A stretch of 64,000 bases of DNA from an uncultured Thalassotalea sp. GTDB lineage: Bacteria; Pseudomonadota; Gammaproteobacteria; Enterobacterales; Alteromonadaceae. The notes under the pieces are model-generated. The model worked only from the letters and a program-made list of their open reading frames with translations. It made no database searches and was not told the origin of the DNA. Below are positions 6,630 through 63,493 of the stretch, one piece after another (the first letter of the stretch is position 1; each line of letters starts with the position of its first letter). Location of the stretch: assembly GCA_964620605.1 (NCBI GenBank), contig CAZUHQ010000002.1, positions 47,010-111,009 on the forward strand, in the 5' to 3' direction. The position numbers and the translations under genes are program-made.

Positions 6630-9600
6630 ATGCTATTTAGACTGGTCATCATATTTACTTTCTCTATTTTCTCGTTATCTACGGCCAGTGCCGCAGATTG
6701 TAGTGCGATATTTCCTGGGCCGACAACATTTGCTGCTAACGGTAGTGTCTCGATAAACGGTTCAAATACTTGTGACGGTGGCTCATGTTCGCCGGTCAAT
6801 AGTTTTACTACACCTACGATTCCATATGCTTCGCCAAGTGGCGCATTCACGGCTACTTCCATTTCAGATGGTGTGTACCAGCACACTTCATGGGGATTAC
6901 CGAAAGAAAGTACCATAACTTTTAGTGGATCAGGCACCGCAGTAATATATATTAGCGGTAGCGCAATAATTCCAAAAGAAACCAACGTTAATGTAGGTGG
7001 TAATGCGGCTAATGTTCTATTGATTGTCGCAGGTTCTTTGACTATTAATAAAGAATCTAATATTCATGCCCATATCTATGTCGGTGGTAGTATTTCCGTG
7101 AATAAAGAGGCTGAGATCACCGGTTCTATTTCCGCAAATGGCTCCTTAGTGGTCGATAAAGAAGGGTCTTATTTTTATTCATCCGGTGATGCCGATCAAC
7201 TTGATGGTCATGGTTTTTGTAACAATAGTACTTCTGAGCTGATACTACATCTTAATTTTGATGAAGGTAGTGGACAAACAGTCGCTGATGATAGTGGCAA
7301 TGGTCGAACTGCCACATTAGGTAATTCAGCGGGGGTTGATGGCCAAGATGCGACATTTCAGTGTGAAGCGAATAGCGGTTATTCGATGGCATTTGAGCGA
7401 AGTGCAAATCAGCATTTAACAACCAACGCCTTTACTCCGCCACAAGATGGTGCAGTGTCATTTTGGTTACGAGTACCAGCTTCACCCACATCAAGACAAC
7501 GAATCTTTGGTTTTGGTGATGGCTGGGAAGCGCGCTGGGAAGCGGACGGTATTATTTATTGGGATATTAATAAAACCGGCTCTAACAACAGTGTCCGTAC
7601 TGCATCGGCTGTGACTGAAACTGATACTTGGGTGCATTTTGTTTTTGTAACCAGTGTCACTAATGGCACTTGGGCGGTGTACAAAAATGGTGTATTGGAA
7701 AATAGCGGCAGCGAAAGCTTTAGCGCTCAATCAGCATCTTCCTTAACCGTTGGCGGTAGTACCTGGCGTTTAACCAGTGAGCATTTAGACGGTGAGCTGG
7801 AAGATTTTAGAATTTATTCCGGCGTGTTAACTCAAAGTGAAATTACTGCCCTGGCGACCAATCCTCCGCAGGCTTGTGCTGAGGTTGTTGCAAATTATCG
7901 TTTTGATGAATGTCAATATACTGGAGCAAGTAATGAGGTCATTGATCAATTAGGCAACTATCCAGCGAATAGTTTTAATAATGTTAATACTTTCGAGTCC
8001 GGAAAAATTCAACGGGCAGTTGAATTAACACATTACAGTCATCACCTTGAGACATCTATACCTATTAATGGTGACTTTAGCGTATCAACCTGGTTTAAAA
8101 AGCCAACAATCACCAGTGGTAGCCGTTACTACGTGTTAGGTGCAATGCAATCAGGTGGAGATTTGCTGTATTTAGACCGAAATAATAATTGGCGCTGGGG
8201 AGTGTATAATGCGTCTTCTGGCTCCGTTAATGGCACGTTCTCTTTTTCGTCATTAGATAATAACTGGCACCATATGGTGTTGGTATATAAAAATAATCAA
8301 ACGCAGTTATATATTGACGATAATTTAGTTGATACCGTAAATAAAGCACCTACGGGCACTCTTAAGTATATTGGTACCTCATACGATAGTGTTGGTGGTA
8401 ATAATGCTCAAGGATTTAGGGCGCCACTTGATGAATTTATTCTTTATGATGATGTGTTGACCGCAACACAAATTAGCAACCTTTATAATAATCAAAATGC
8501 GGGAAATAACTATGATGGCAGTGTGCGTGATGCTGTTGTGTGTCCCCCATTAATCGATCATTATCAAATCATTCACGATGGTCAGGGGCTGACTTGTGAA
8601 GCGGAAACCGTGACGATAAAGGCTTGTACCAGTGATATCGGTGAAGTATGTGTTGAGTCTTCACAAAGTATCGATATTGAGCTCAGTGCTTCTGGTAACT
8701 CCCACACCGTAACTAATAGTAAGAACTTTACTGGTAATGGAGCTATAGCGTTTAATTACACTGAAGCTGAACCGGTAACTTTGTCAATAACTGATGCTTC
8801 TGTTTCTGCTGAACATGGTTTTATTTGTAACAATAATAATTCTGGTGATTGTCAGATGACTTTTGATGATGCCGGATTTATTTTTACTGGCATTAATTCT
8901 GTTGAAGTTGCCGGTGAAGATAATAATGATGTAACAATTCAGGCGGTGAAAAAAGGGACTAATACACAAAGTTGTGTTCCACTATTTAATGAAGGTGGTG
9001 ATAAAGCAATAGAGTTTGCTCTGGAAACGGTTTATCCAGATAACTTCGGTAGAGACTATACCATAGGCTCATCCGTTATTAATTTAAATAATAACGGTAA
9101 TGTCACTAACTATCAGGCGGTAACACTAAGTTTTGATAGCGATGCTAAGGCAAATTTACCGAACAATATCTATGATGACGCTGGGAATATTACCTTACAT
9201 GCCAGGTACACGGTTGCTGCAACGCCTGATAATCCTGCACTGACTATAACAGGCAATGAAAGTTTTTATGTCAGACCGTTCCAATTTAACATTTACCCTA
9301 AACGTCCTATGGACGGCGGTGAGAATCAAGGTCAGCCGTTAATTGAAACCACAGCCGATGGTGATGTTCACCAAAAAGCTGGTCAGGCGTTTGACCTGAA
9401 AATCGAGGCGGTAAATAAAGATGGCGATATAACAACGAATTATCATGGTTATATTGCAGAACTTGCATTGCAGCGCACGGGCCCGGTTCCTGGAACAAAC
9501 GGTACGTTAAAGTATGGCGGAGGTGTTGGGCAAAGTATGTTATCGTCGAGCAGTGCGGACAATTATATTTGGTGGTCGCCTGAGTTAATTTCATTCTCTA

Positions 9601-10763
9601 ACGGTAGTTATCAATACACAGGGATGACCTATAGCGAAGTCGGTTTGCTCAATTTGACGATGCGCGAGTGGAACTTTAACAGTGATAAAGCGCAGGGCAG
9701 CAGTCCTATTGGACGTTTTACTCCAGATCATTTTGAGCAAACGGTGACTATCCAAGGCGGCATCGTTGCTAAGCATAATGGGCTTGTCAGTTGTACTATG
9801 AAGAACTGGGTATATAGTGGGCAGCAAACTGACAGTAAAGGTACTATCCGCTATGGGATAGAGCCCAAATTAACCATTACCGCAAAAAATGTTGCCGATG
9901 GCACCACAGAAAATTATATCGGTGACTTTGCCAAGTTAGAAGGAATAAAAGCAACACCTGCTGTTGCGGGAAATGAAATTACTCTTAGCACACCAAATAC
10001 ACTCCATGCGAATAGTTTAGCGGTAGGAGGCGATGTTTCTGTGGATGTAAGCCTTTTAGAAGATTTTATTGAAGGGGCTGCAACATTTACTTTATCTGGC
10101 GATAACCATTTTACCTATACCCGTAACAGCGATAGCAAGGTAGCTCCATTTTTCGCTGATTTTGAAATTCCCATCAGTACCATTAAAGACAGTGATGATG
10201 TTAGCGCCGCAGCTTTTGTGAACCCAAGGTTTTCTCAGGCAAATAGCAATAGTTTAACGGTGAAATTTGGCCGCTTAACTATTGACCATGCCTATGGCCC
10301 GGAAACCTCAGATTTACTTGTTGCCATGTTTACCCAGTATTGGGATGGCAGTGAGTTTGTCACTAATACCGATGATAGCTGTACTATTTCACAGCTGTTG
10401 CCAAATGTGGATGATGCGAAAGTAACAACAGGTAATATTCGAACTGGCGGCTTAACCGAGTGGCAATACCGCTTGTTTGATACTAATGGTATTGATGATG
10501 CGATTGGTACAGCTGATACTAAAGCATCGGTGAGTGGCAGTTTTAGTAGTGGTAAACTCGCTTTACCTACTGGCTTATTTAAGTTTTCTGCGCCAAATAA
10601 GCAGGGAACTCTGGAGTTTGAATATCAGGTGCCAACTTGGCTGCAATATGACTGGACAACTCAAGACGGCAGCTTTGATGAAAACCCAACCGCGACTCTT
10701 AGCTTTGGCTTGTTCCGCGGCAATGACCGTATTATTTATTGGCGTGAAGTGGGGAATAACTAA
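6630..10763 (+). CDS. mshQ: MSHA biogenesis protein MshQ (large tip adhesin-like protein with two LamG/ConA-like domains)
   Basis: Signal peptide; two LamG-like units (WVHFVFV...LDGELEDFRIY; WHHMVLVY...LDEFILYD); MshQ C-terminal PTWLQYDW and FGLFRGNDRIIYWRE; last msh gene before mreB. Probable ATG 6630 (track starts at 6609). Confidence 0.88.
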   Translation: MLFRLVIIFTFSIFSLSTASAADCSAIFPGPTTFAANGSVSINGSNTCDGGSCSPVNSFTTPTIPYASPSGAFTATSISDGVYQHTSWGLPKESTITFSGSGTAVIYISGSAIIPKETNVNVGGNAANVLLIVAGSLTINKESNIHAHIYVGGSISVNKEAEITGSISANGSLVVDKEGSYFYSSGDADQLDGHGFCNNSTSELILHLNFDEGSGQTVADDSGNGRTATLGNSAGVDGQDATFQCEANSGYSMAFERSANQHLTTNAFTPPQDGAVSFWLRVPASPTSRQRIFGFGDGWEARWEADGIIYWDINKTGSNNSVRTASAVTETDTWVHFVFVTSVTNGTWAVYKNGVLENSGSESFSAQSASSLTVGGSTWRLTSEHLDGELEDFRIYSGVLTQSEITALATNPPQACAEVVANYRFDECQYTGASNEVIDQLGNYPANSFNNVNTFESGKIQRAVELTHYSHHLETSIPINGDFSVSTWFKKPTITSGSRYYVLGAMQSGGDLLYLDRNNNWRWGVYNASSGSVNGTFSFSSLDNNWHHMVLVYKNNQTQLYIDDNLVDTVNKAPTGTLKYIGTSYDSVGGNNAQGFRAPLDEFILYDDVLTATQISNLYNNQNAGNNYDGSVRDAVVCPPLIDHYQIIHDGQGLTCEAETVTIKACTSDIGEVCVESSQSIDIELSASGNSHTVTNSKNFTGNGAIAFNYTEAEPVTLSITDASVSAEHGFICNNNNSGDCQMTFDDAGFIFTGINSVEVAGEDNNDVTIQAVKKGTNTQSCVPLFNEGGDKAIEFALETVYPDNFGRDYTIGSSVINLNNNGNVTNYQAVTLSFDSDAKANLPNNIYDDAGNITLHARYTVAATPDNPALTITGNESFYVRPFQFNIYPKRPMDGGENQGQPLIETTADGDVHQKAGQAFDLKIEAVNKDGDITTNYHGYIAELALQRTGPVPGTNGTLKYGGGVGQSMLSSSSADNYIWWSPELISFSNGSYQYTGMTYSEVGLLNLTMREWNFNSDKAQGSSPIGRFTPDHFEQTVTIQGGIVAKHNGLVSCTMKNWVYSGQQTDSKGTIRYGIEPKLTITAKNVADGTTENYIGDFAKLEGIKATPAVAGNEITLSTPNTLHANSLAVGGDVSVDVSLLEDFIEGAATFTLSGDNHFTYTRNSDSKVAPFFADFEIPISTIKDSDDVSAAAFVNPRFSQANSNSLTVKFGRLTIDHAYGPETSDLLVAMFTQYWDGSEFVTNTDDSCTISQLLPNVDDAKVTTGNIRTGGLTEWQYRLFDTNGIDDAIGTADTKASVSGSFSSGKLALPTGLFKFSAPNKQGTLEFEYQVPTWLQYDWTTQDGSFDENPTATLSFGLFRGNDRIIYWREVGNN

Positions 10764-10932
10764 CAAACCTTACCAGAAATGCTTAGCTTTTGCCGCTTTA
10801 TGAAAAAAAATCACAAAAAACTGGTATTTTTTGCAAAAACAGGCATCACATCTTGTAAAGTCTGCGGTATGATTAGCGGCAATTACAAAAATAATTTCAT
10901 TACGCTGTAGCATTGTTGCTGTAGTGGAGTAG

Positions 10933-11993
<1,061 letters not shown>

Positions 11994-11994
<1 letters not shown>

Positions 11995-12118
11995 ATTTTC
12001 GTCATAAATAGCATTTATGCGGCATTGTCTGCGTTGCTCACCATAATCACTTATACATATAAGTTCATATGGTTCGCAACTTGACGGCTTTGCCTAAACA
12101 CTATTTATTTAGAAAATT
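11994..12118. repeat. ERIC-like 125-bp palindromic intergenic element
   Basis: Terminal inverted repeat AATTTTC...GAAAATT. Nested stems GTTGC/GCAAC, ACCATA/TATGGT, CTTA/TAAG. Motifs CGTCATA, CTGCGTT.CTCACC, TCACTTA, TTATTTAG resemble the ERIC consensus as I recall it. Confidence 0.6.
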
Positions 12119-12146
12119 AGTGTTTATTAATTTATTAAAAATATTG

Positions 12147-12312
12147 GCTATGTTCCTTTTAATTGTGGTTGTTAAGCTAATCCATTGATAAATAAGGATG
12201 TTGCTATGGTGATAAAAACAAGCATCACCAGCAGGGATGCTGGTGTTGAGCTTCCATGGATGGATTTGTGCGTCTTGTTTGTTTACCTAGCAACAGTTAT
12301 CGGGAACATAGC
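12147..12312 (+). mobile_element. MITE-like dispersed repeat, full-length copy 1 (~166 bp)
   Basis: Terminal inverted repeat GCTATGTTCC...GGAACATAGC; internal CACCAGCA-GGGA-TGCTGGTG hairpin; homologous copies at 42847, 57377 and 59818. Confidence 0.8.
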
Positions 12313-12348
12313 AAAAATATTAAATAACAAAGAGAACCCATATTCTCG

Positions 12349-13239
12349 ATGAATCCCATATTTAAACACGGATCTTCCCCACAGCACCGGCTAGTTCTGG
12401 TGCTGTTTTGTTCTGCGTTATTGATCTTTTTCGACCATAAAATGAATAGCTTTGAGTTTGTTCGCGGCTATTTGCAATCTATGGTCAGCCCGTTGCAGTA
12501 TTTGGCAACCACGCCAAAAATGGCGCTCGACTGGGCGGTGGAAAACCTGGTAACTCGTCAGCGACTGATTGAAGAAAATCAAAAATATAAAACCAATGAA
12601 CTGGTTTATCATGAGCAGGCGATGCAGCTTGATATCATCAAACAAGAAAATGACAGGTTGCGTTCGTTATTGGCATCACCGCTGCGCACTGAAACTAAAA
12701 AGATGGTCGCGGAAATTTTATCTGTGGATAGCGATCCCTATTCGCATCAGGTGGTGATTAATCGCGGTGCTAATGATGGTGTGTTTGAAGGGCAAGCGGT
12801 GATCGACGATCAAGGCATTGTTGGGCAAATTTTACATGTCGGTACTATTTCCAGCCGGGTACTGTTGATCACCGATGTTAGCCATGCGCTGCCGGTGCGT
12901 ATTAAGCGTAACGGTATAAGATTAATCGCCAACGGTACCGGCAATATTGACCGGCTCAGCCATAACCATGTACCGCATAGTACCGATGTAAGGGTTGGTG
13001 ATTTGTTAGTGACTTCCGGGCTTGGCGGTAAATATCCGGAAGGTTATCCGGTGGCAAAAGTTTCTGCGGTTCGTCAGGATGAATCTCAGCCATTTGCCCA
13101 GGTGCAAAGCGAGCCGGTTGCCAGGATTAACCGCTTGCGTTATTTGTTGTTATTGTGGCCGGAAAAACAACATAGTATTTTCTCTTCCAAAGATGATTTG
13201 GCAAAACAGCCGCATAAAGATGCCAGGGAGGCAAACTGA
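12349..13239 (+). CDS. mreC: Rod shape-determining protein MreC
   Basis: N-terminal TM and coiled coil; GDLLVTSGLGGKYPEGYPVAKV. Confidence 0.97.
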   Translation: MNPIFKHGSSPQHRLVLVLFCSALLIFFDHKMNSFEFVRGYLQSMVSPLQYLATTPKMALDWAVENLVTRQRLIEENQKYKTNELVYHEQAMQLDIIKQENDRLRSLLASPLRTETKKMVAEILSVDSDPYSHQVVINRGANDGVFEGQAVIDDQGIVGQILHVGTISSRVLLITDVSHALPVRIKRNGIRLIANGTGNIDRLSHNHVPHSTDVRVGDLLVTSGLGGKYPEGYPVAKVSAVRQDESQPFAQVQSEPVARINRLRYLLLLWPEKQHSIFSSKDDLAKQPHKDAREAN

Positions 13240-57511: not shown

Positions 57512-57588
57512 CGCCAGCTAATTTTCTGCGCTAGCTAATTTTCTGCGCCAGCTAATTCTCTGGGTTAGCTCATCTTTGCGCCAGCTAA
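57512..57588 (+). repeat. 17-bp tandem repeat array (consensus CGCCAGCTAATTTTCTG)
   Basis: Units at 57512, 57529 and 57546, a degenerate unit at 57563 and a partial unit at 57579 overlapping the lysR stop. Related units lie at 57352-57376. Confidence 0.85.
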
Positions 57589-58418
57589 AGCGGATTGAGG
57601 TTATCTATGAGTTTGCTCAGTTTCACCACTAACGGTGTTTGCTCCTGATAGGCAAGTACGATTTCACGGGTCAGTTGCATGCCGTTAATCGGGCGAAATG
57701 CCAGATCATTTTGCTCGATAATTTCTTTATGAGCAGGCACTAAGGCGCAGCCGAGTCCGGCTCTCACCAAGCCTAAGGCATAATCTATGGTTTGAATTTT
57801 CGCTCGAATATCCAGTTGAATGCCGGTTAAAGTAAAAGTATCTATTAAGGTTTGTAACGCGCTACAAGGCGTGCGCTGGATAAACGCCAGCTGGTCAAAA
57901 TCATGGAGCTCAATGGCATCCTTTAGCGATAGCGGGTGATTATGTCCCATGGCAACCAGGTAATCTTCCTGCCAGATTGCCTGATAGGTTTCACCGTCTT
58001 TTAATTCTTCTTTAATGATAATGCGGGCATCACAGGGTTCGTATTGCGGCACTAAAGTTAGCTCAATGTCGGGAGCTGCAGTGGTAAAGTCTTTTAACAA
58101 TACGCTCATGCGTTTAACCCCTAAGCCTTTAGTGACGCCGAGATTAAAGTTTTGCTTATTCGCTGAGGTTGCAAATGACGACTTGATTGCATCTGCCTGG
58201 CCGAGTAACTGCTTGGCGAGCGGGTAGAGTTTTTCACCTTGATCTGTTGCGGTAACGCCACGCGCATGACGGATAAATAACGCCTGATTGATTTCTCCTT
58301 CCAGTTGGGCGACCGCAGCTGAGATTGACGGCTGAGCGATAAAACAGGCCTTAGCTGCGGCGCTAAAGCTTTGCTGCTCATAAACGTTAATAAAATATTT
58401 TAGATGTTTCAGATCCAT
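57585..58418 (-). CDS. LysR family regulator divergent from gcdH (GcdR-like position)
   Basis: MDLKHLKYF..SFSAAAKACFIAQPSISAAVAQLE HTH. Probable ATG 58418 (track 58448). Confidence 0.92.
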   Translation of the reverse strand: MDLKHLKYFINVYEQQSFSAAAKACFIAQPSISAAVAQLEGEINQALFIRHARGVTATDQGEKLYPLAKQLLGQADAIKSSFATSANKQNFNLGVTKGLGVKRMSVLLKDFTTAAPDIELTLVPQYEPCDARIIIKEELKDGETYQAIWQEDYLVAMGHNHPLSLKDAIELHDFDQLAFIQRTPCSALQTLIDTFTLTGIQLDIRAKIQTIDYALGLVRAGLGCALVPAHKEIIEQNDLAFRPINGMQLTREIVLAYQEQTPLVVKLSKLIDNLNPL

Positions 58419-58450
58419 ATCAGGATTATTTCCTAATTTATTTGTCATGG

Positions 58451-58620: not shown

Positions 58621-59808
58621 ATGTCAAACGTATCATCAAAACCTAGTTTTAACTGGCAAGACCCATTACTACTTGATTCTTTATTATCGGAAGAGGAGCG
58701 GATGATCCGTGATAGTGCTCATCAGTACTGTCAGGAGAAATTAATGCCGCGGGTGCTAGAAGCGAATCGCAATGAAACGTTTGACCCTGAGATCATGCGT
58801 GAGCTTGGCGAACTTGGTTTACTCGGTTGTACTATCGAAGAAAAATACGGCTGCGCGAACGTTAACTATGTGACTTATGGCCTGATTGCCCGTGAAGTTG
58901 AGCGGGTTGACAGCGGCTACCGCAGTGCGATGAGTGTTCAGTCATCATTAGTGATGCATCCGATTTATGCCTATGGCACCGAAGAGCAAAAAATGAAGTA
59001 TTTGCCTAAGCTGGCAACCGGTGAATTGATTGGCTGTTTTGGTTTAACCGAGCCAAATTCCGGTTCAGATCCAGCGAGCTTATCGACCCGTGCGGTAAAA
59101 GTAGATGGCGGCTATCGCTTAACTGGTAACAAAATGTGGATCACTAACTCACCAATTGCCGATGTCTTTATCATCTGGGCCAAGTTAGATGGCGTGATCA
59201 AGGGCTTTATTCTCGAAAAAGGCATAGAAGGACTGTCGGCACCGAAAATTGAAGGTAAGTTTTCATTGCGTGCTTCGATCACAGGTGAAGTGGTAATGGA
59301 TAATGTTTTCGTTCCGGAAGAAAATTTATTGCCGCATGTTCAAGGGCTATCCGGGCCATTTGGCTGCTTGAACAAAGCACGTTACGGCATTTCCTGGGGC
59401 GCTTTAGGCGCTGCTGAATATTGCTGGCATGCCGCCAGACAATACACTCTTGATCGTGAACAGTTTGGTCGTCCATTAGCGGCAACTCAGCTGGTACAGA
59501 AAAAACTGGCGGATATGCAAACTGAAATCACCACGGCACTTTTTGCCAGTTTGCAGGTCGGGCGGTTAATGGATGCCGGCACTTTAGCGCCGGAAGCGAT
59601 TTCTCTGGTTAAACGTAACTCTTGTGGCAAGGCACTGGAAATTGCTCGTATCGCTCGTGATATGCACGGTGGCAATGGTATTGCAGATGAGTTCCACGTT
59701 ATTCGCCATATGATTAACCTCGAAGCGGTTAATACCTATGAAGGCACACATGATATTCATGCGCTGATCTTGGGTCGTGCTCAAACTGGCATTCAGGCAT
59801 TTTTCTAA
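58621..59808 (+). CDS. gcdH: Glutaryl-CoA dehydrogenase
   Basis: [22 protein letters not shown]; [18 protein letters not shown]; [12 protein letters not shown]; [15 protein letters not shown], the GCDH signature with catalytic Glu. Confidence 0.93.
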
Positions 59809-59982: not shown

Positions 59983-62235
59983 ATGTCTGATCGCAATCAG
60001 AGTTTAAAAGAAAACTTTATTCGTTGTGTCGAGCAACAGCAACTGCCAGCGCTTAGCGTCAATTTAATCCCGGAGCAAGTGGGGCTGTCGGCGGCTGAGT
60101 TGGTGGATTTATTCGAAACTCAGGTCATCAGTCGCCATCTCGATTTACACTCGCGGGTGATGCAAAAAAATGGTCAAAGCTTTTATACCATCGGCAGTTC
60201 AGGGCATGAAGGCAATGCTGCCAGTGCAAAAGCATTTCGGCCAAGCGATATGGCATTTTTGCATTATCGCAGTGGCGCTTTTGCCATACAGCGCGCAAAG
60301 CAAGTTGATGGTCAAACTTCGATTTACGACATGCTATTGTCGTTTGCCGCCTCAAAAGACGATCCTATCTCAGGGGGGCGTCATAAGGTCTTAGGCAGTA
60401 AAGCATTAGCGATCCCACCGCAAACCAGCACCATAGCGTCGCATTTACCAAAAGCTATGGGAGCGGCGTTTTCTGTCGGCCTGGCAAAGCGCTTAAACCA
60501 TCAGGGGGAATTACCGAACGATAGTGTGGTGGTTTGCAGTTTTGGCGATGCTTCGTCGAACCATTCTACTGCCCAAGGGGCGATTAACAGTGCGGCCTGG
60601 GCGTCTTATCAATCGGTTCCTATGCCGATCGTCTTTGTCTGTGAAGATAACGGTATCGGCATTTCAACCTCAACGCCTAATGGCTGGGTTGAGGCCAACT
60701 ATAAAAATCGCGCCGGATTAGTGTATCTCAGCTGTGATGGTTTGAATGTTTTAGATACTTATCAAACAACGTTGCAGGCGGCGAAAATAGCGCGTGAGAA
60801 AAAAGTACCGGTATTTTTACACGTTAAATTGATTCGCTTATTAGGCCATGCCGGGTCGGATGCCGAGTTTGTTTATCGCAAAGAACAGCAAATTGATGAT
60901 AATGAACGCAATGATCCACTGCTGCATACTGCCCGTATTTTACTCGATAATGAAATTTTAACTCAAAAGCAAATTGTCGATATTTATCAAAATGTTGCCG
61001 AGAGAGTGGTCAGTGTTGCCGAACAGGTAGTCACTAAACCAAGACTAGAAAGTGCCGAGCAGGTGATGGCAAGTCTTGCGCCTACTATTGAAAATGCTGC
61101 GCAATCATGCTCCCCGGTGGATGAGCAGCAGCGCATGAAATTATTTGCTCATGACAAGCATAATTTAGCGAAAAAGCAGCATCTGGCGAAAATTATTAAC
61201 TGGACGCTGATTGATGTCATGGCAGAGTACAGCAATGTTGTGCTGCTTGGTGAAGACATTGCCCGCAAAGGCGGGGTTTATAATGTTACGACCAAGTTAG
61301 TTGACCGTTTTGGTAAAAACCGGGTGATAAATACCTTGCTTGATGAACAATCGATTCTTGGCGGCGCGATTGGCCTGGCGCATAACGGTTTTGTGCCGAT
61401 CCCTGAAATTCAATTTCTCGCATATGTTCATAACGCGGAAGATCAGATTCGCGGCGAAGCGGCGACCTTATCTTTCTTTAGTAAAGGGCAATATACCAAC
61501 CCTATGGTGATCCGCATTGCCGGTCTTGCCTATCAAAAAGGCTTTGGCGGCCATTTTCATAATGATAATTCTTTTGCGGTATTTCGTGATATTCCAGGGG
61601 TTATTCTGGCTTGCCCATCTAATGGCGAAGATGCCCAGCAGATGCTAAGAACTTGTGTTCGTCTGGCACAGGAACAGCAAAGGGTGGTAGTTTTTCTTGA
61701 GCCCATCGCCTTGTATATGACTAAAGATTTGCATCAGGAAGGGGATGGTTTGTGGACCTTTGATTATCAAGTGCCAACTAAAGAAAGCCGCAGCGAAGAA
61801 TTATCACAGCAGATGTCGGTTAAGGTTGCCGGTGATGGTGATGAGTTATGTATTTTAACTTACGGTAATGGTTATTACCTGTCGCGTCAGGCACAAAAAG
61901 AATTGCAGCAGCAAGGTATCAAGTCACGAGTCGTTGATCTGCGCTGGCTGGCACCGCTCGATGAAACCGGCATCATTAATCAGGTTAACGGCTGTGACAA
62001 GGTATTAATTGTTGATGAATGTCGGCAAACCGGTTCATTGAGTGAAGCCTTGATGGCGTTAATTGCTGAGCATTGCCCGGATAAAGCGTCTGGCAATATA
62101 GAGCGACTATGCGCACAGGACAGTTTTATTCCGTTAGGCAGCGCCGCTTACCATGTCTTACCGTCAAAAGGTGACATTATTAACCGTGCATTGGCTTTGT
62201 GTCAGCATGAAAAAATAACAAGGAAAGCGATATGA
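59983..62235 (+). CDS. Fused E1 alpha+beta ThDP-dependent 2-oxoacid dehydrogenase component
   Basis: Alpha part: SGHEG, HYRS, ThDP motif GDASSNH-X-EDNG, RLLGHAGSD. Beta part: GEDIARKGGVY, NTLLDEQ, EIQFLAY, GGHFHND, VVDLRWLAPLD. Confidence 0.9.
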   Translation: MSDRNQSLKENFIRCVEQQQLPALSVNLIPEQVGLSAAELVDLFETQVISRHLDLHSRVMQKNGQSFYTIGSSGHEGNAASAKAFRPSDMAFLHYRSGAFAIQRAKQVDGQTSIYDMLLSFAASKDDPISGGRHKVLGSKALAIPPQTSTIASHLPKAMGAAFSVGLAKRLNHQGELPNDSVVVCSFGDASSNHSTAQGAINSAAWASYQSVPMPIVFVCEDNGIGISTSTPNGWVEANYKNRAGLVYLSCDGLNVLDTYQTTLQAAKIAREKKVPVFLHVKLIRLLGHAGSDAEFVYRKEQQIDDNERNDPLLHTARILLDNEILTQKQIVDIYQNVAERVVSVAEQVVTKPRLESAEQVMASLAPTIENAAQSCSPVDEQQRMKLFAHDKHNLAKKQHLAKIINWTLIDVMAEYSNVVLLGEDIARKGGVYNVTTKLVDRFGKNRVINTLLDEQSILGGAIGLAHNGFVPIPEIQFLAYVHNAEDQIRGEAATLSFFSKGQYTNPMVIRIAGLAYQKGFGGHFHNDNSFAVFRDIPGVILACPSNGEDAQQMLRTCVRLAQEQQRVVVFLEPIALYMTKDLHQEGDGLWTFDYQVPTKESRSEELSQQMSVKVAGDGDELCILTYGNGYYLSRQAQKELQQQGIKSRVVDLRWLAPLDETGIINQVNGCDKVLIVDECRQTGSLSEALMALIAEHCPDKASGNIERLCAQDSFIPLGSAAYHVLPSKGDIINRALALCQHEKITRKAI

Positions 62236-63302
62236 CCAAGAGTAAAAATAAAACTAACAGTGCCGTGAAGAAACAGCGAGCGGTGGTGATTTGCCCTGGT
62301 CGCGGTACTTATAATAAGGAAGAATTAGGTTATTTATCGCGTTTTCACAGTGATAAGTCATCCTTTATCCAGCATATCGACCAATATCGGGCGCAGCAAA
62401 ATCAGGTGGCGATTGCCGAGCTCGATGCCATGGATAAATACAGCATGCGGGTGCATACCGCCGGCGAAAATGCTTCGGCGCTGATTTATGCCTGTGCCCA
62501 TGGTGATTTTCAGTCAATCGATACCGAACATTACGAGATAGTAGCGGTAACCGGTAATTCCATGGGCTGGTATATCGCGCTGGCGGTGGCGGGAGCGTTA
62601 AAAGCCTATGGCGCAATTGAGCTGATCAACACCATGGGTTCTATGATGAAAAATGGTGTCATTGGCGGTCAGTTGATTTACCCGTTGGTAGATCAAAACT
62701 GGCAGCGAGATCAACAGCGCGAGCAGCAGGTATTGGCACTGGTAAATGAAGTAAACCAGCGGTCTGATTGTCAGGTACATGTTTCCATTCATCTAGGTGG
62801 CTACCTGGTGTTGGGTGGCGATAAAAATGGTTTGCAGGCGATGCAAGACGCCTTGCCGGTGATCGATGACAGATATCCGATGAACCTGTTTAACCATGCC
62901 GCGTTCCATACTCCTTTGCTTAATGATATTTCAGCGCAGGCCAAACAAGTGTTATCGCCGAGTATTTTTCATGCGCCAACGGTTCCGCTAATCGATGGCT
63001 TGGGCAATATCTGGCAGCCGTACTCAACCGATTGCCAAAAACTTTATGATTATACTTTAGGCACTCAGGTAGTGGCACCTTATAATTTTAGTAAGGCAAT
63101 TGAGGTTGCTGTGAAAGAATATGCCCCGGATAAGCTGATTATTTTAGGGCCGGGGGCAACCTTGGGCGGCTCGGTGGCGCAATGTTTAATCGAGCATAAC
63201 TGGCAAGGTTTATCCTGTAAATCAGACTTTATTGAGCGCCAGAAGCAAGATCCGTTTATATTATCTATGGGGATTGCCGAGCAGCGGGCGTTAGTGATTT
63301 AA
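62232..63302 (+). CDS. FabD/ACP S-malonyltransferase-fold acyltransferase with atypical active site
   Basis: CPGRGT (FabD FPGQGS); GNSMG nucleophile (GHSLG); AFHTPLL; LGPG. Its ATG overlaps the E1 stop (ATGA). Confidence 0.82.
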   Translation: MTKSKNKTNSAVKKQRAVVICPGRGTYNKEELGYLSRFHSDKSSFIQHIDQYRAQQNQVAIAELDAMDKYSMRVHTAGENASALIYACAHGDFQSIDTEHYEIVAVTGNSMGWYIALAVAGALKAYGAIELINTMGSMMKNGVIGGQLIYPLVDQNWQRDQQREQQVLALVNEVNQRSDCQVHVSIHLGGYLVLGGDKNGLQAMQDALPVIDDRYPMNLFNHAAFHTPLLNDISAQAKQVLSPSIFHAPTVPLIDGLGNIWQPYSTDCQKLYDYTLGTQVVAPYNFSKAIEVAVKEYAPDKLIILGPGATLGGSVAQCLIEHNWQGLSCKSDFIERQKQDPFILSMGIAEQRALVI

Positions 63303-63493
63303 CGTCTGCGGTTGTTATTTATGAAGTGGAGTTAAGGATAAATATTCAATTAAAAGTTATAAATATAGTCGATATTTAGCTTAGTCCCGGTTATTATTGA
63401 AAATTGCTGACATTTAAACTGAATAAAAAAGTAGGATTTGTCAGGGAAACTAGCTAAAATATCTGTTATTAATTGTTAGTTTTTAGGACGATA

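Follow-up and report, generated by a model that had tools for sequence, protein, structure and literature searches.

A FabD-fold acyltransferase family with a remodelled anion site is encoded directly beside a fused 2-oxoacid dehydrogenase E1 and, commonly, glutaryl-CoA dehydrogenase

In a 64,000-nucleotide stretch of DNA from an uncultured Thalassotalea sp. (GCA_964620605.1, contig CAZUHQ010000002.1, positions 47,010 to 111,009; hereafter, the window), we identified a FabD-fold acyltransferase homolog, P0001, whose gene (62232-63302, plus strand) is an intact open reading frame of 356 amino acids that follows genes for a glutaryl-coenzyme A (CoA) dehydrogenase, gcdH, and for a fused, thiamine diphosphate (ThDP)-dependent 2-oxoacid dehydrogenase E1 component. 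P0001 belongs to an undescribed subfamily of the FabD/acyltransferase superfamily, here called the E1-associated FabD-like acyltransferases, and what is new about it is the combination of a FabD-fold acyltransferase bearing a remodelled anion site with an unprecedented partner, the E1. In the literature, we found no description of either the E1-acyltransferase pair or the P0001 family. With a probability of about one half, we propose that the three genes form a catabolic module in which a glutaryl group made by the E1 is passed by P0001, via Ser110, to CoA, with Arg24 as the best candidate for holding the distal carboxylate. P0001 would, in this way, probably help to convert 2-oxoadipate, a product of lysine breakdown, to glutaryl-CoA.

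Active site and family of P0001

A phmmer search of solved structures with P0001 retrieved only FabD/malonyl-CoA:acyl carrier protein (ACP) transacylases (MCAT) and the acyltransferases (ATs) of polyketide synthases (PKS), the best at an E value of 1.6e-7. In the HMMER alignments with FabD structures (3hjv, 3h0p, 3k89, and 2g1h/1mla), GNSMG of P0001 falls on GHSLG, NTMGS on EMRGK, and AFHTPLL on the motif of the FabD catalytic His, and an hhalign comparison of a 39-sequence profile of the P0001 family with the FabD of the same genome gave a register identical to that of phmmer. Because both of these local alignments stop short of the P0001 N-terminus, the equivalence of Arg24 and FabD Gln11 is based on a global MAFFT alignment to the FabD of the same genome, in which AVVICPGRGTY pairs with AFIFPGQGSQ, together with the strand-loop pattern.

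Placed on FabD in this manner, P0001 carries G23-R24-G25 (62298-62306, plus strand; codons ggt cgc ggt) in place of G-Q11-G in the oxyanion loop, and Met135 (62634-62636, plus strand) at the Arg117 site, the latter in the HMMER, hhalign, and MAFFT alignments alike. The catalytic dyad is kept: Ser110, in the nucleophile elbow G108-N-S110-M-G112 (62553-62567, plus strand), aligns with Ser92, and His226 (62907-62909, plus strand), in the motif NHAAFHTPL, aligns with the catalytic His201. An initial annotation, made from the DNA letters, had proposed the exchange of GQG for GRG, a Met at the Arg117 site, and retention of the Ser and His; proper alignment bears out each of these proposals, with no Arg at the 117 site, and the coordinates and codons given for GRG and Met were exact. 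A further change, beyond what that annotation had emphasized, is that Asn takes the place of the GHSxG His in the whole family.

In FabD, Arg117 forms a bidentate salt bridge to the malonyl carboxylate, and Gln11 and Leu93 form the oxyanion hole through their backbone NH (bioRxiv 10.1101/2020.05.15.098798). As the oxyanion hole needs only the backbone NH, residue 11 can vary in its side chain. The oxyanion position is nonetheless strictly Gln or His in PKS ATs and acyl hydrolases (PMC11775670), and an Arg there is therefore unusual among characterized relatives. An AlphaFold2 model of P0001 built from the family alignment (predicted local distance difference test, 93.8; predicted template-modelling score, 0.91) points to a FabD-type fold, with an alpha/beta-hydrolase-like core and a ferredoxin-like subdomain. 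When this model was compared with the PDB by Foldseek, bacterial FabD/MCAT ranked best (E values of 1e-16 to 1e-13; template-modelling scores of 0.7-0.8), followed by trans-acting ATs (trans-ATs) and VinK, at sequence identities of just 15-18%.

The altered residues are not peculiar to P0001. Among 79 orthologs taken from genome loci (52-79% identity to P0001; two phyla, with members from Colwelliaceae/Alteromonadaceae, Hahellaceae, Saccharospirillaceae, Bdellovibrionota, and Oligoflexales), conservation is complete or almost complete at P22-G-R-G25, Y27, T107-G-N-S-M-G-W113, N133-T-M-G-S-M-M139, and N221-H-A-A-F-H226, and the invariant motifs are PGRG[TS]Y, TGNSMGW, NTMGSMM, and NHAAFHTPL. 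Arg24 is present in 79 of 79, and Met135 is likewise invariant. A profile search of 1.8 billion representative sequences returned 196 clusters at E<=1e-30. In 48 full-length representatives, reaching down to 28% identity, P-G-R-G-[ST]-[YF] occurs in all save a few degenerate or chimeric sequences, while at the 117 site Met predominates, Leu, Val, Ala, and Thr are less frequent, and Arg does not occur. The two substitutions singled out by the initial annotation are, hence, properties of the family, the loop being near-fixed and the 117 site free of Arg even at a distance. Judged from these alignments, Arg24, Met135, and GNS are family hallmarks, conserved far beyond chance. We define the family by P-G-R-G-[ST]-[YF], G-N-S-[ML]-G-W, and [AS]-F-H-T-P, by a residue other than Arg at the 117 site, and by a gene position directly 3' of a fused E1 alpha-beta; P0001 shows all of these motifs, the non-Arg 117 site, and the E1 directly upstream.

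The separation from FabD is equally apparent from domain searches. At E<0.01, P0001 matched no Pfam family, including Acyl_transf_1, Patatin, 2-oxoacid_dh, and Biotin_lipoyl, and its NCBIfam matches were all below threshold (fabD TIGR00128, at 51.2 bits against a cut-off of 260.9; mdcH; and PKS AT domains). A second, weak match to P0001 in the genome lies on another contig, scores 398 bits for TIGR00128, and sits in a plsX-fabD-fabG-acpP cluster. That gene is the genome's real fabD, and P0001 is not the housekeeping malonyltransferase. The view taken at the outset, that P0001 is not a malonyltransferase, is thus well supported by the score of 51 versus 261 bits, by the family-wide loss of Arg117, and by the separate, canonical fabD. 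Members of the family, which numbers 6156 clusters with E <= 0.001 among the 8000 candidates scored, carry the public names "ACP S-malonyltransferase", "malonyl CoA-acyl carrier protein transacylase", and, in one case, "acyl carrier protein". This naming is probably a systematic misannotation, and the first label, which is widely used, would wrongly assign the family to fatty-acid synthesis.

The operon, its conservation, and its distribution

The window's gene order is a divergent LysR-family regulator, gcdH, the fused E1, P0001, a terminator-like hairpin, and argR. The gcdH product (58621-59808, plus strand) matched solved glutaryl-CoA dehydrogenases in phmmer searches at E values of about 1e-191 (bacterial; 3gnc/3eom/3d6b) and about 1e-183 (human; 1sir), and its counterparts at related loci are 82-98% identical; by these similarities, the acyl-CoA dehydrogenase of the window is a genuine glutaryl-CoA dehydrogenase. 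The E1 (59983-62235, plus strand; 750 amino acids; Pfam E1_dh, Transket_pyr, and Transketolase_C) joins alpha and beta parts in a single chain and retains the ThDP motif GDAS...EDNG, as well as a His (in RLLGHAGSD) that matches His291-alpha of the human branched-chain 2-oxoacid dehydrogenase E1, a residue tied to the reductive acylation of lipoyl groups. Its stop codon overlaps the ATG start of P0001 as ATGA, and a Shine-Dalgarno-like AAGGAAAG lies 7 nt 5' of that start. The hairpin (63284-63309, plus strand), a pattern match from a consensus scan with an 11-bp stem followed by a T-rich tail, spans the P0001 stop codon and likely marks the operon end. The regulator (57585-58448, minus strand; Pfam HTH_1 and LysR_substrate) occupies a GcdR-like position, and its divergent placement upstream of gcdH is kept in 50 of 80 related loci.

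Using the acyltransferase as the query, we collected 80 genome and 80 metagenome loci, and about 170 loci were inspected altogether. The fused E1 lies directly upstream of the acyltransferase in 75 of the 80 genome loci and in 74 of the 80 metagenome loci, that is, at every locus with enough upstream sequence, and this adjacency spans Gammaproteobacteria, Bdellovibrionota, and other lineages. The linkage to gcdH is looser: it adjoins the pair in 66/80 genome and 47/80 metagenome loci, is divergent from the pair in Bdellovibrionota, and is absent from the vicinity in other proteobacterial families. Beyond the E1 and gcdH, no neighbour was conserved across the genome and metagenome loci, and none of the roughly 170 loci held an E2 or E3 gene or placed the acyltransferase in a PKS or fab context. 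Further, a 595-amino-acid fragment in the representative library (P0235; Ala-rich) unites the C-terminal region of E1-beta and the acyltransferase (CPGRGSY, GNSLGW, and HAAFHTPLM) in one chain, which provides a Rosetta-stone argument for direct cooperation between the two. A second candidate, P0181, links Transket_pyr to the acyltransferase's C-terminal half; as it looks like an artefact of assembly or gene calling, we did not count it among the fusions. Several other neighbours at Bdellovibrionota and proteobacterial loci (PhoU, CAP, YchF, a BCCT transporter, a DUF427-cyclase, and an M14 peptidase) were uninformative as to the pathway. In a divergent lineage (L125; G418:C6), a second ThDP enzyme, of the acetolactate-synthase/benzoylformate-decarboxylase type (7637-9286, minus strand; TPP_enzyme_N/M/C) lies directly 3' of the acyltransferase.

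A subset of loci places the pair among enzymes of 2-aminoadipate metabolism. Specifically, one operon (L121) encodes a class I/II aminotransferase, the E1, the acyltransferase, an L-piperideine-6-carboxylate dehydrogenase (AmaB; 817 bits, cut-off 730), and a pipecolate-oxidase-like flavoprotein, with an ornithine-cyclodeaminase/mu-crystallin gene nearby. Two metagenome loci (L219 and L229) carry an AmaB above the cut-off 2-3 kb from the pair. With 2-aminoadipate- and 2-oxoadipate-making enzymes on one side of the pair and a consumer of glutaryl-CoA on the other, the bracketed step is the conversion of 2-oxoadipate to glutaryl-CoA. The window's own genome encodes an AmaB (814 bits) outside the window, on contig C64 of G000 (locus L132). 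There, the AmaB gene (9247-10779, minus strand) lies directly 3' of a gene (10857-13184, minus strand) for a 775-amino-acid protein that fuses an APH-type kinase to an enzyme of class-III aminotransferase fold, an architecture that we take to be that of hydroxylysine kinase plus phosphohydroxylysine phospho-lyase. Should this identity be true, the fusion would convert hydroxylysine to 2-aminoadipate semialdehyde, giving a marine bacterium a route from collagen hydroxylysine to 2-aminoadipate. A homolog of the fusion lies about 6 kb downstream at another locus (L169). Adjoining the AmaB locus of the window's genome is a reverse-transcriptase open reading frame (7764-9041, plus strand; RVT_1), possibly of the group II intron or retron type.

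The acyltransferase is patchily distributed: among the genomes sampled, it was present in 2/400 at the level of the class, in 16/301 at that of the order, and in 74/151 within the window's GTDB family, and it also occurs in other families of the phylum. Within the GTDB family, gcdH is the most widespread of the three genes (117/151 genomes), followed by the fused E1 (83/151), and every carrier of the acyltransferase (74/74) has the E1. The dependence thus runs from the acyltransferase to the E1, and some lineages hold the E1 on its own. Of the 11 AmaB genomes in the family, nine carry the E1-acyltransferase pair, a co-occurrence that lends weak support to an aminoadipate route. In one genome with neither the E1 nor the acyltransferase (L151; G442:C1, 4763-7158), gcdH is translationally coupled to a GcoT-like family III CoA-transferase, the arrangement by which gcdH is fed from glutarate in Pseudomonas. 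Set beside the E1 loci, this suggests that one bacterial family has two alternative ways to feed gcdH.

Proposed route to glutaryl-CoA and its competitors

In the sequence of reactions that we favour, lysine, hydroxylysine, or pipecolate would be broken down through 2-aminoadipate to 2-oxoadipate. The E1 would decarboxylate 2-oxoadipate and reductively glutarylate a thiol carrier; the most plausible carrier is a lipoyl arm lent by a resident 2-oxoacid dehydrogenase complex, and the window's genome encodes three E2 proteins. P0001 would then accept glutaryl on Ser110, with His226 as the activating residue, and hand it to CoA, bypassing an E2 core that is specialized for other acyl groups, after which GcdH would convert glutaryl-CoA to crotonyl-CoA. 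In lineages without the acyltransferase, the resident E2 core would make the transfer itself, as DLST does in animals. As to the active site, the loss of Arg117 would remove a clamp set one methylene from the serine ester, and Arg24, projecting from the oxyanion loop, may serve as the new anion binder; it is our best candidate for contacting the distal carboxylate of a longer acyl chain. The initial annotation had likewise suggested that the relocated Arg could anchor the far carboxylate of a longer dicarboxylic acyl group, such as glutaryl. A glutaryl substrate is well supported by the gene context (the fused E1 and gcdH and, elsewhere, AmaB and an aminotransferase), though not by the active site.

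Several observations weigh against this proposal. First, the E1 persists without the acyltransferase in nine genomes across three genera, plus single genomes of three other genera (one of them 78% complete), and the acyltransferase is therefore dispensable, at least in those lineages. At three such loci (L140, G185:C46; L143, G408:C1; and L150, G429:C4), gcdH-E1 is intact and is followed directly by unrelated genes, and neither a remnant of the acyltransferase nor a substitute gene was found 3' of the E1; the E1 proteins without an acyltransferase belong to the same orthologous group as those of carriers and have C-termini no different from theirs. Second, AmaB occurs in just 9 of the 74 carriers of the family and, above the cut-off, in none of five Bdellovibrionota metagenome-assembled genomes. 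Most carriers thus lack a recognizable AmaB that would account for their 2-oxoadipate, and 2-oxoadipate as the substrate throughout the family is inferred from minority contexts and gcdH. Third, the family has other invariant basic residues (R53, H75, H222, K295, and K330) that are alternative carboxylate anchors, so anchoring by Arg24 is not a necessary conclusion. Finally, the trans-AT EtnB, which has kept the canonical Arg, works on both succinyl and glutaryl (PMC13386636). As for the genes that follow gcdH-E1 at the three loci named above, they encode a beta-propeller/CCP-like protein, a GGDEF-EAL protein, and NnrS; the three loci amount to natural "knock-outs" of the acyltransferase.

A bolder version of our proposal would see the E1 and P0001 as a new 2-oxoacid dehydrogenase architecture, in which a Ser-His acyltransferase replaces the E2 core of chloramphenicol acetyltransferase (CAT) fold and Arg24 is a relocated anchor that sets the chain length. 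We hold this version only tentatively and lean against it. An obligatory substitution for E2 was our first reading, and it is weakened by the nine gcdH-E1 genomes without an acyltransferase. These genomes also speak for an alternative that we regard as unlikely, namely, that the E1 alone, with a resident lipoyl-E2 core and E3, makes glutaryl-CoA, in the way that human DHTKD1 employs DLST and DLD, while P0001 is an accessory hydrolase or proofreader that would remove glutaryl or incorrect acyl groups from stalled lipoyl arms, CoA, or ACP. Further in favour of an accessory hydrolase are the three E2 proteins of the genome, which could supply the core, and the acyl hydrolases of trans-AT PKS, which have a FabD fold and have lost Arg117 (to Gln) (PMC11775670). 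Nevertheless, hydrolysis of a glutaryl thioester to glutarate would be wasteful in a gcdH operon that, as here, holds no CoA-transferase gene; acyl hydrolases retain Gln or His at the oxyanion position, where the P0001 family has an invariant Arg; and the translational coupling and the fusion to the E1 suggest a stoichiometric partner, rather than an occasional editor.

Less probable again is a lipoyl-independent system, in which P0001 binds to the E1 and receives the acyl group straight from an oxidized acyl-ThDP intermediate, another oxidant having replaced lipoamide. The absence of E2 and E3 genes from the inspected loci and the existence of an E1-acyltransferase fusion would fit such a system, but Pfam detected no oxidant (an FAD domain or Fe-S motif) in either the E1 or P0001, the E1 has kept its His of lipoyl reductive acylation, and the carrier genomes possess lipoyl proteins. 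We give hardly any credence to P0001 being a divergent but ordinary malonyl-CoA:ACP transacylase paralog in which Arg24 stands in for Arg117 in malonate binding, for although its public name, its FabD-like fold and Ser-His dyad, and an Arg beside the acyl pocket that could, in principle, bind a malonyl carboxylate are in keeping with it, the TIGR00128 score is far too low, Acyl_transf_1 is unmatched, a canonical fabD exists elsewhere in the genome, and the gene invariably adjoins the E1 and never lies among fab or PKS genes, with no ACP gene in the gcdH-E1-P0001 module.

If the glutaryl transfer that we propose is true, the gcdH-E1-P0001 module supplies a gene for the bacterial conversion of 2-oxoadipate to glutaryl-CoA, a step for which, the animal-type DHTKD1 system aside, we found no assigned gene in the literature. 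The relocation of an Arg from helix position 117 to the oxyanion loop would exemplify how the FabD scaffold is retuned in its acyl specificity and would be relevant to the engineering of ATs for dicarboxylic units. Were P0001 truly to replace the E2 core, the accepted view that all lipoate-dependent 2-oxoacid dehydrogenases have one type of transacylase would have to be revised.

Comparison with known systems

The PGRG loop of P0001 has a parallel in the patatin/cPLA2 branch of the FabD/lysophospholipase-like superfamily, whose members carry a basic residue (G-G-x-R/K-G) in the oxyanion loop, where P0001 has Arg24; for the cPLA2 residue, a role in binding an anionic substrate group has been proposed. 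These enzymes are lipid hydrolases with a Ser-Asp dyad, however, and P0001 differs from the patatin-like phospholipases (PF01734) in its Ser-His dyad and in the lack of a Patatin match. With FabD (E. coli 1MLA/2G2Z; TIGR00128), P0001 shares the two-subdomain fold, a GxSxG nucleophile, and an equivalently placed catalytic His and, probably, a ping-pong acyl-serine chemistry between two thiol carriers. In contrast to FabD, to which it is 15-18% identical, P0001 is about 45 residues longer, has Met for Arg117, Arg for Gln11, and GNS for GHS, falls far under the family cut-off, and is encoded in a catabolic operon with the E1 and gcdH, rather than in a fab cluster.

Acyl hydrolases clear the stalled ACPs of trans-AT PKS. 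Those of the PksD and PedC type, and the trans-ATs, resemble P0001 in being stand-alone FabD-fold proteins of altered acyl specificity, and the hydrolases have also lost Arg117, which is replaced by Gln or, rarely, by another residue (PMC11775670). Yet in these hydrolases Gln at the 117 site goes together with a Gln or His in the oxyanion loop. P0001 has Met and Arg at the two positions, and no PKS genes occur at any of the inspected loci, which sets it outside that group. The succinyl-loading trans-ATs EtnB and GbnB offer a closer parallel in substrate, as EtnB transfers succinyl or glutaryl with the distal carboxylate retained (PMC13386636); unlike P0001, EtnB does so with a canonical Arg (Arg114). 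All of these proteins, acyl hydrolases and trans-ATs alike, further differ from P0001 in belonging to PKS clusters, acting on ACP substrates, and having no ThDP E1 partner.

Nor is P0001 an E2 dihydrolipoamide acyltransferase (PF00198 plus a lipoyl domain), since it has no such Pfam match and a FabD-like fold; any likeness to E2 could only be one of function, without membership of that family. The nearest functional counterpart of the proposed module is the animal 2-oxoadipate dehydrogenase (DHTKD1 as E1a, DLST as E2o, and DLD as E3), which carries out the overall reaction that we propose here, 2-oxoadipate to glutaryl-CoA, in lysine catabolism, and whose DHTKD1 is an E1 without an E2 of its own that borrows one, as we propose for the window's E1 (PMC9367764, PMC8146983). 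The two differ in their parts: DHTKD1 is a homodimeric E1 of the 2-oxoglutarate dehydrogenase (OGDH) type, while that of the window is a fused alpha-beta E1 of the heterotetramer type, and the animal complex transfers the acyl group on the CAT-fold E2o core, with no FabD-like component, where the bacterial module would employ P0001.

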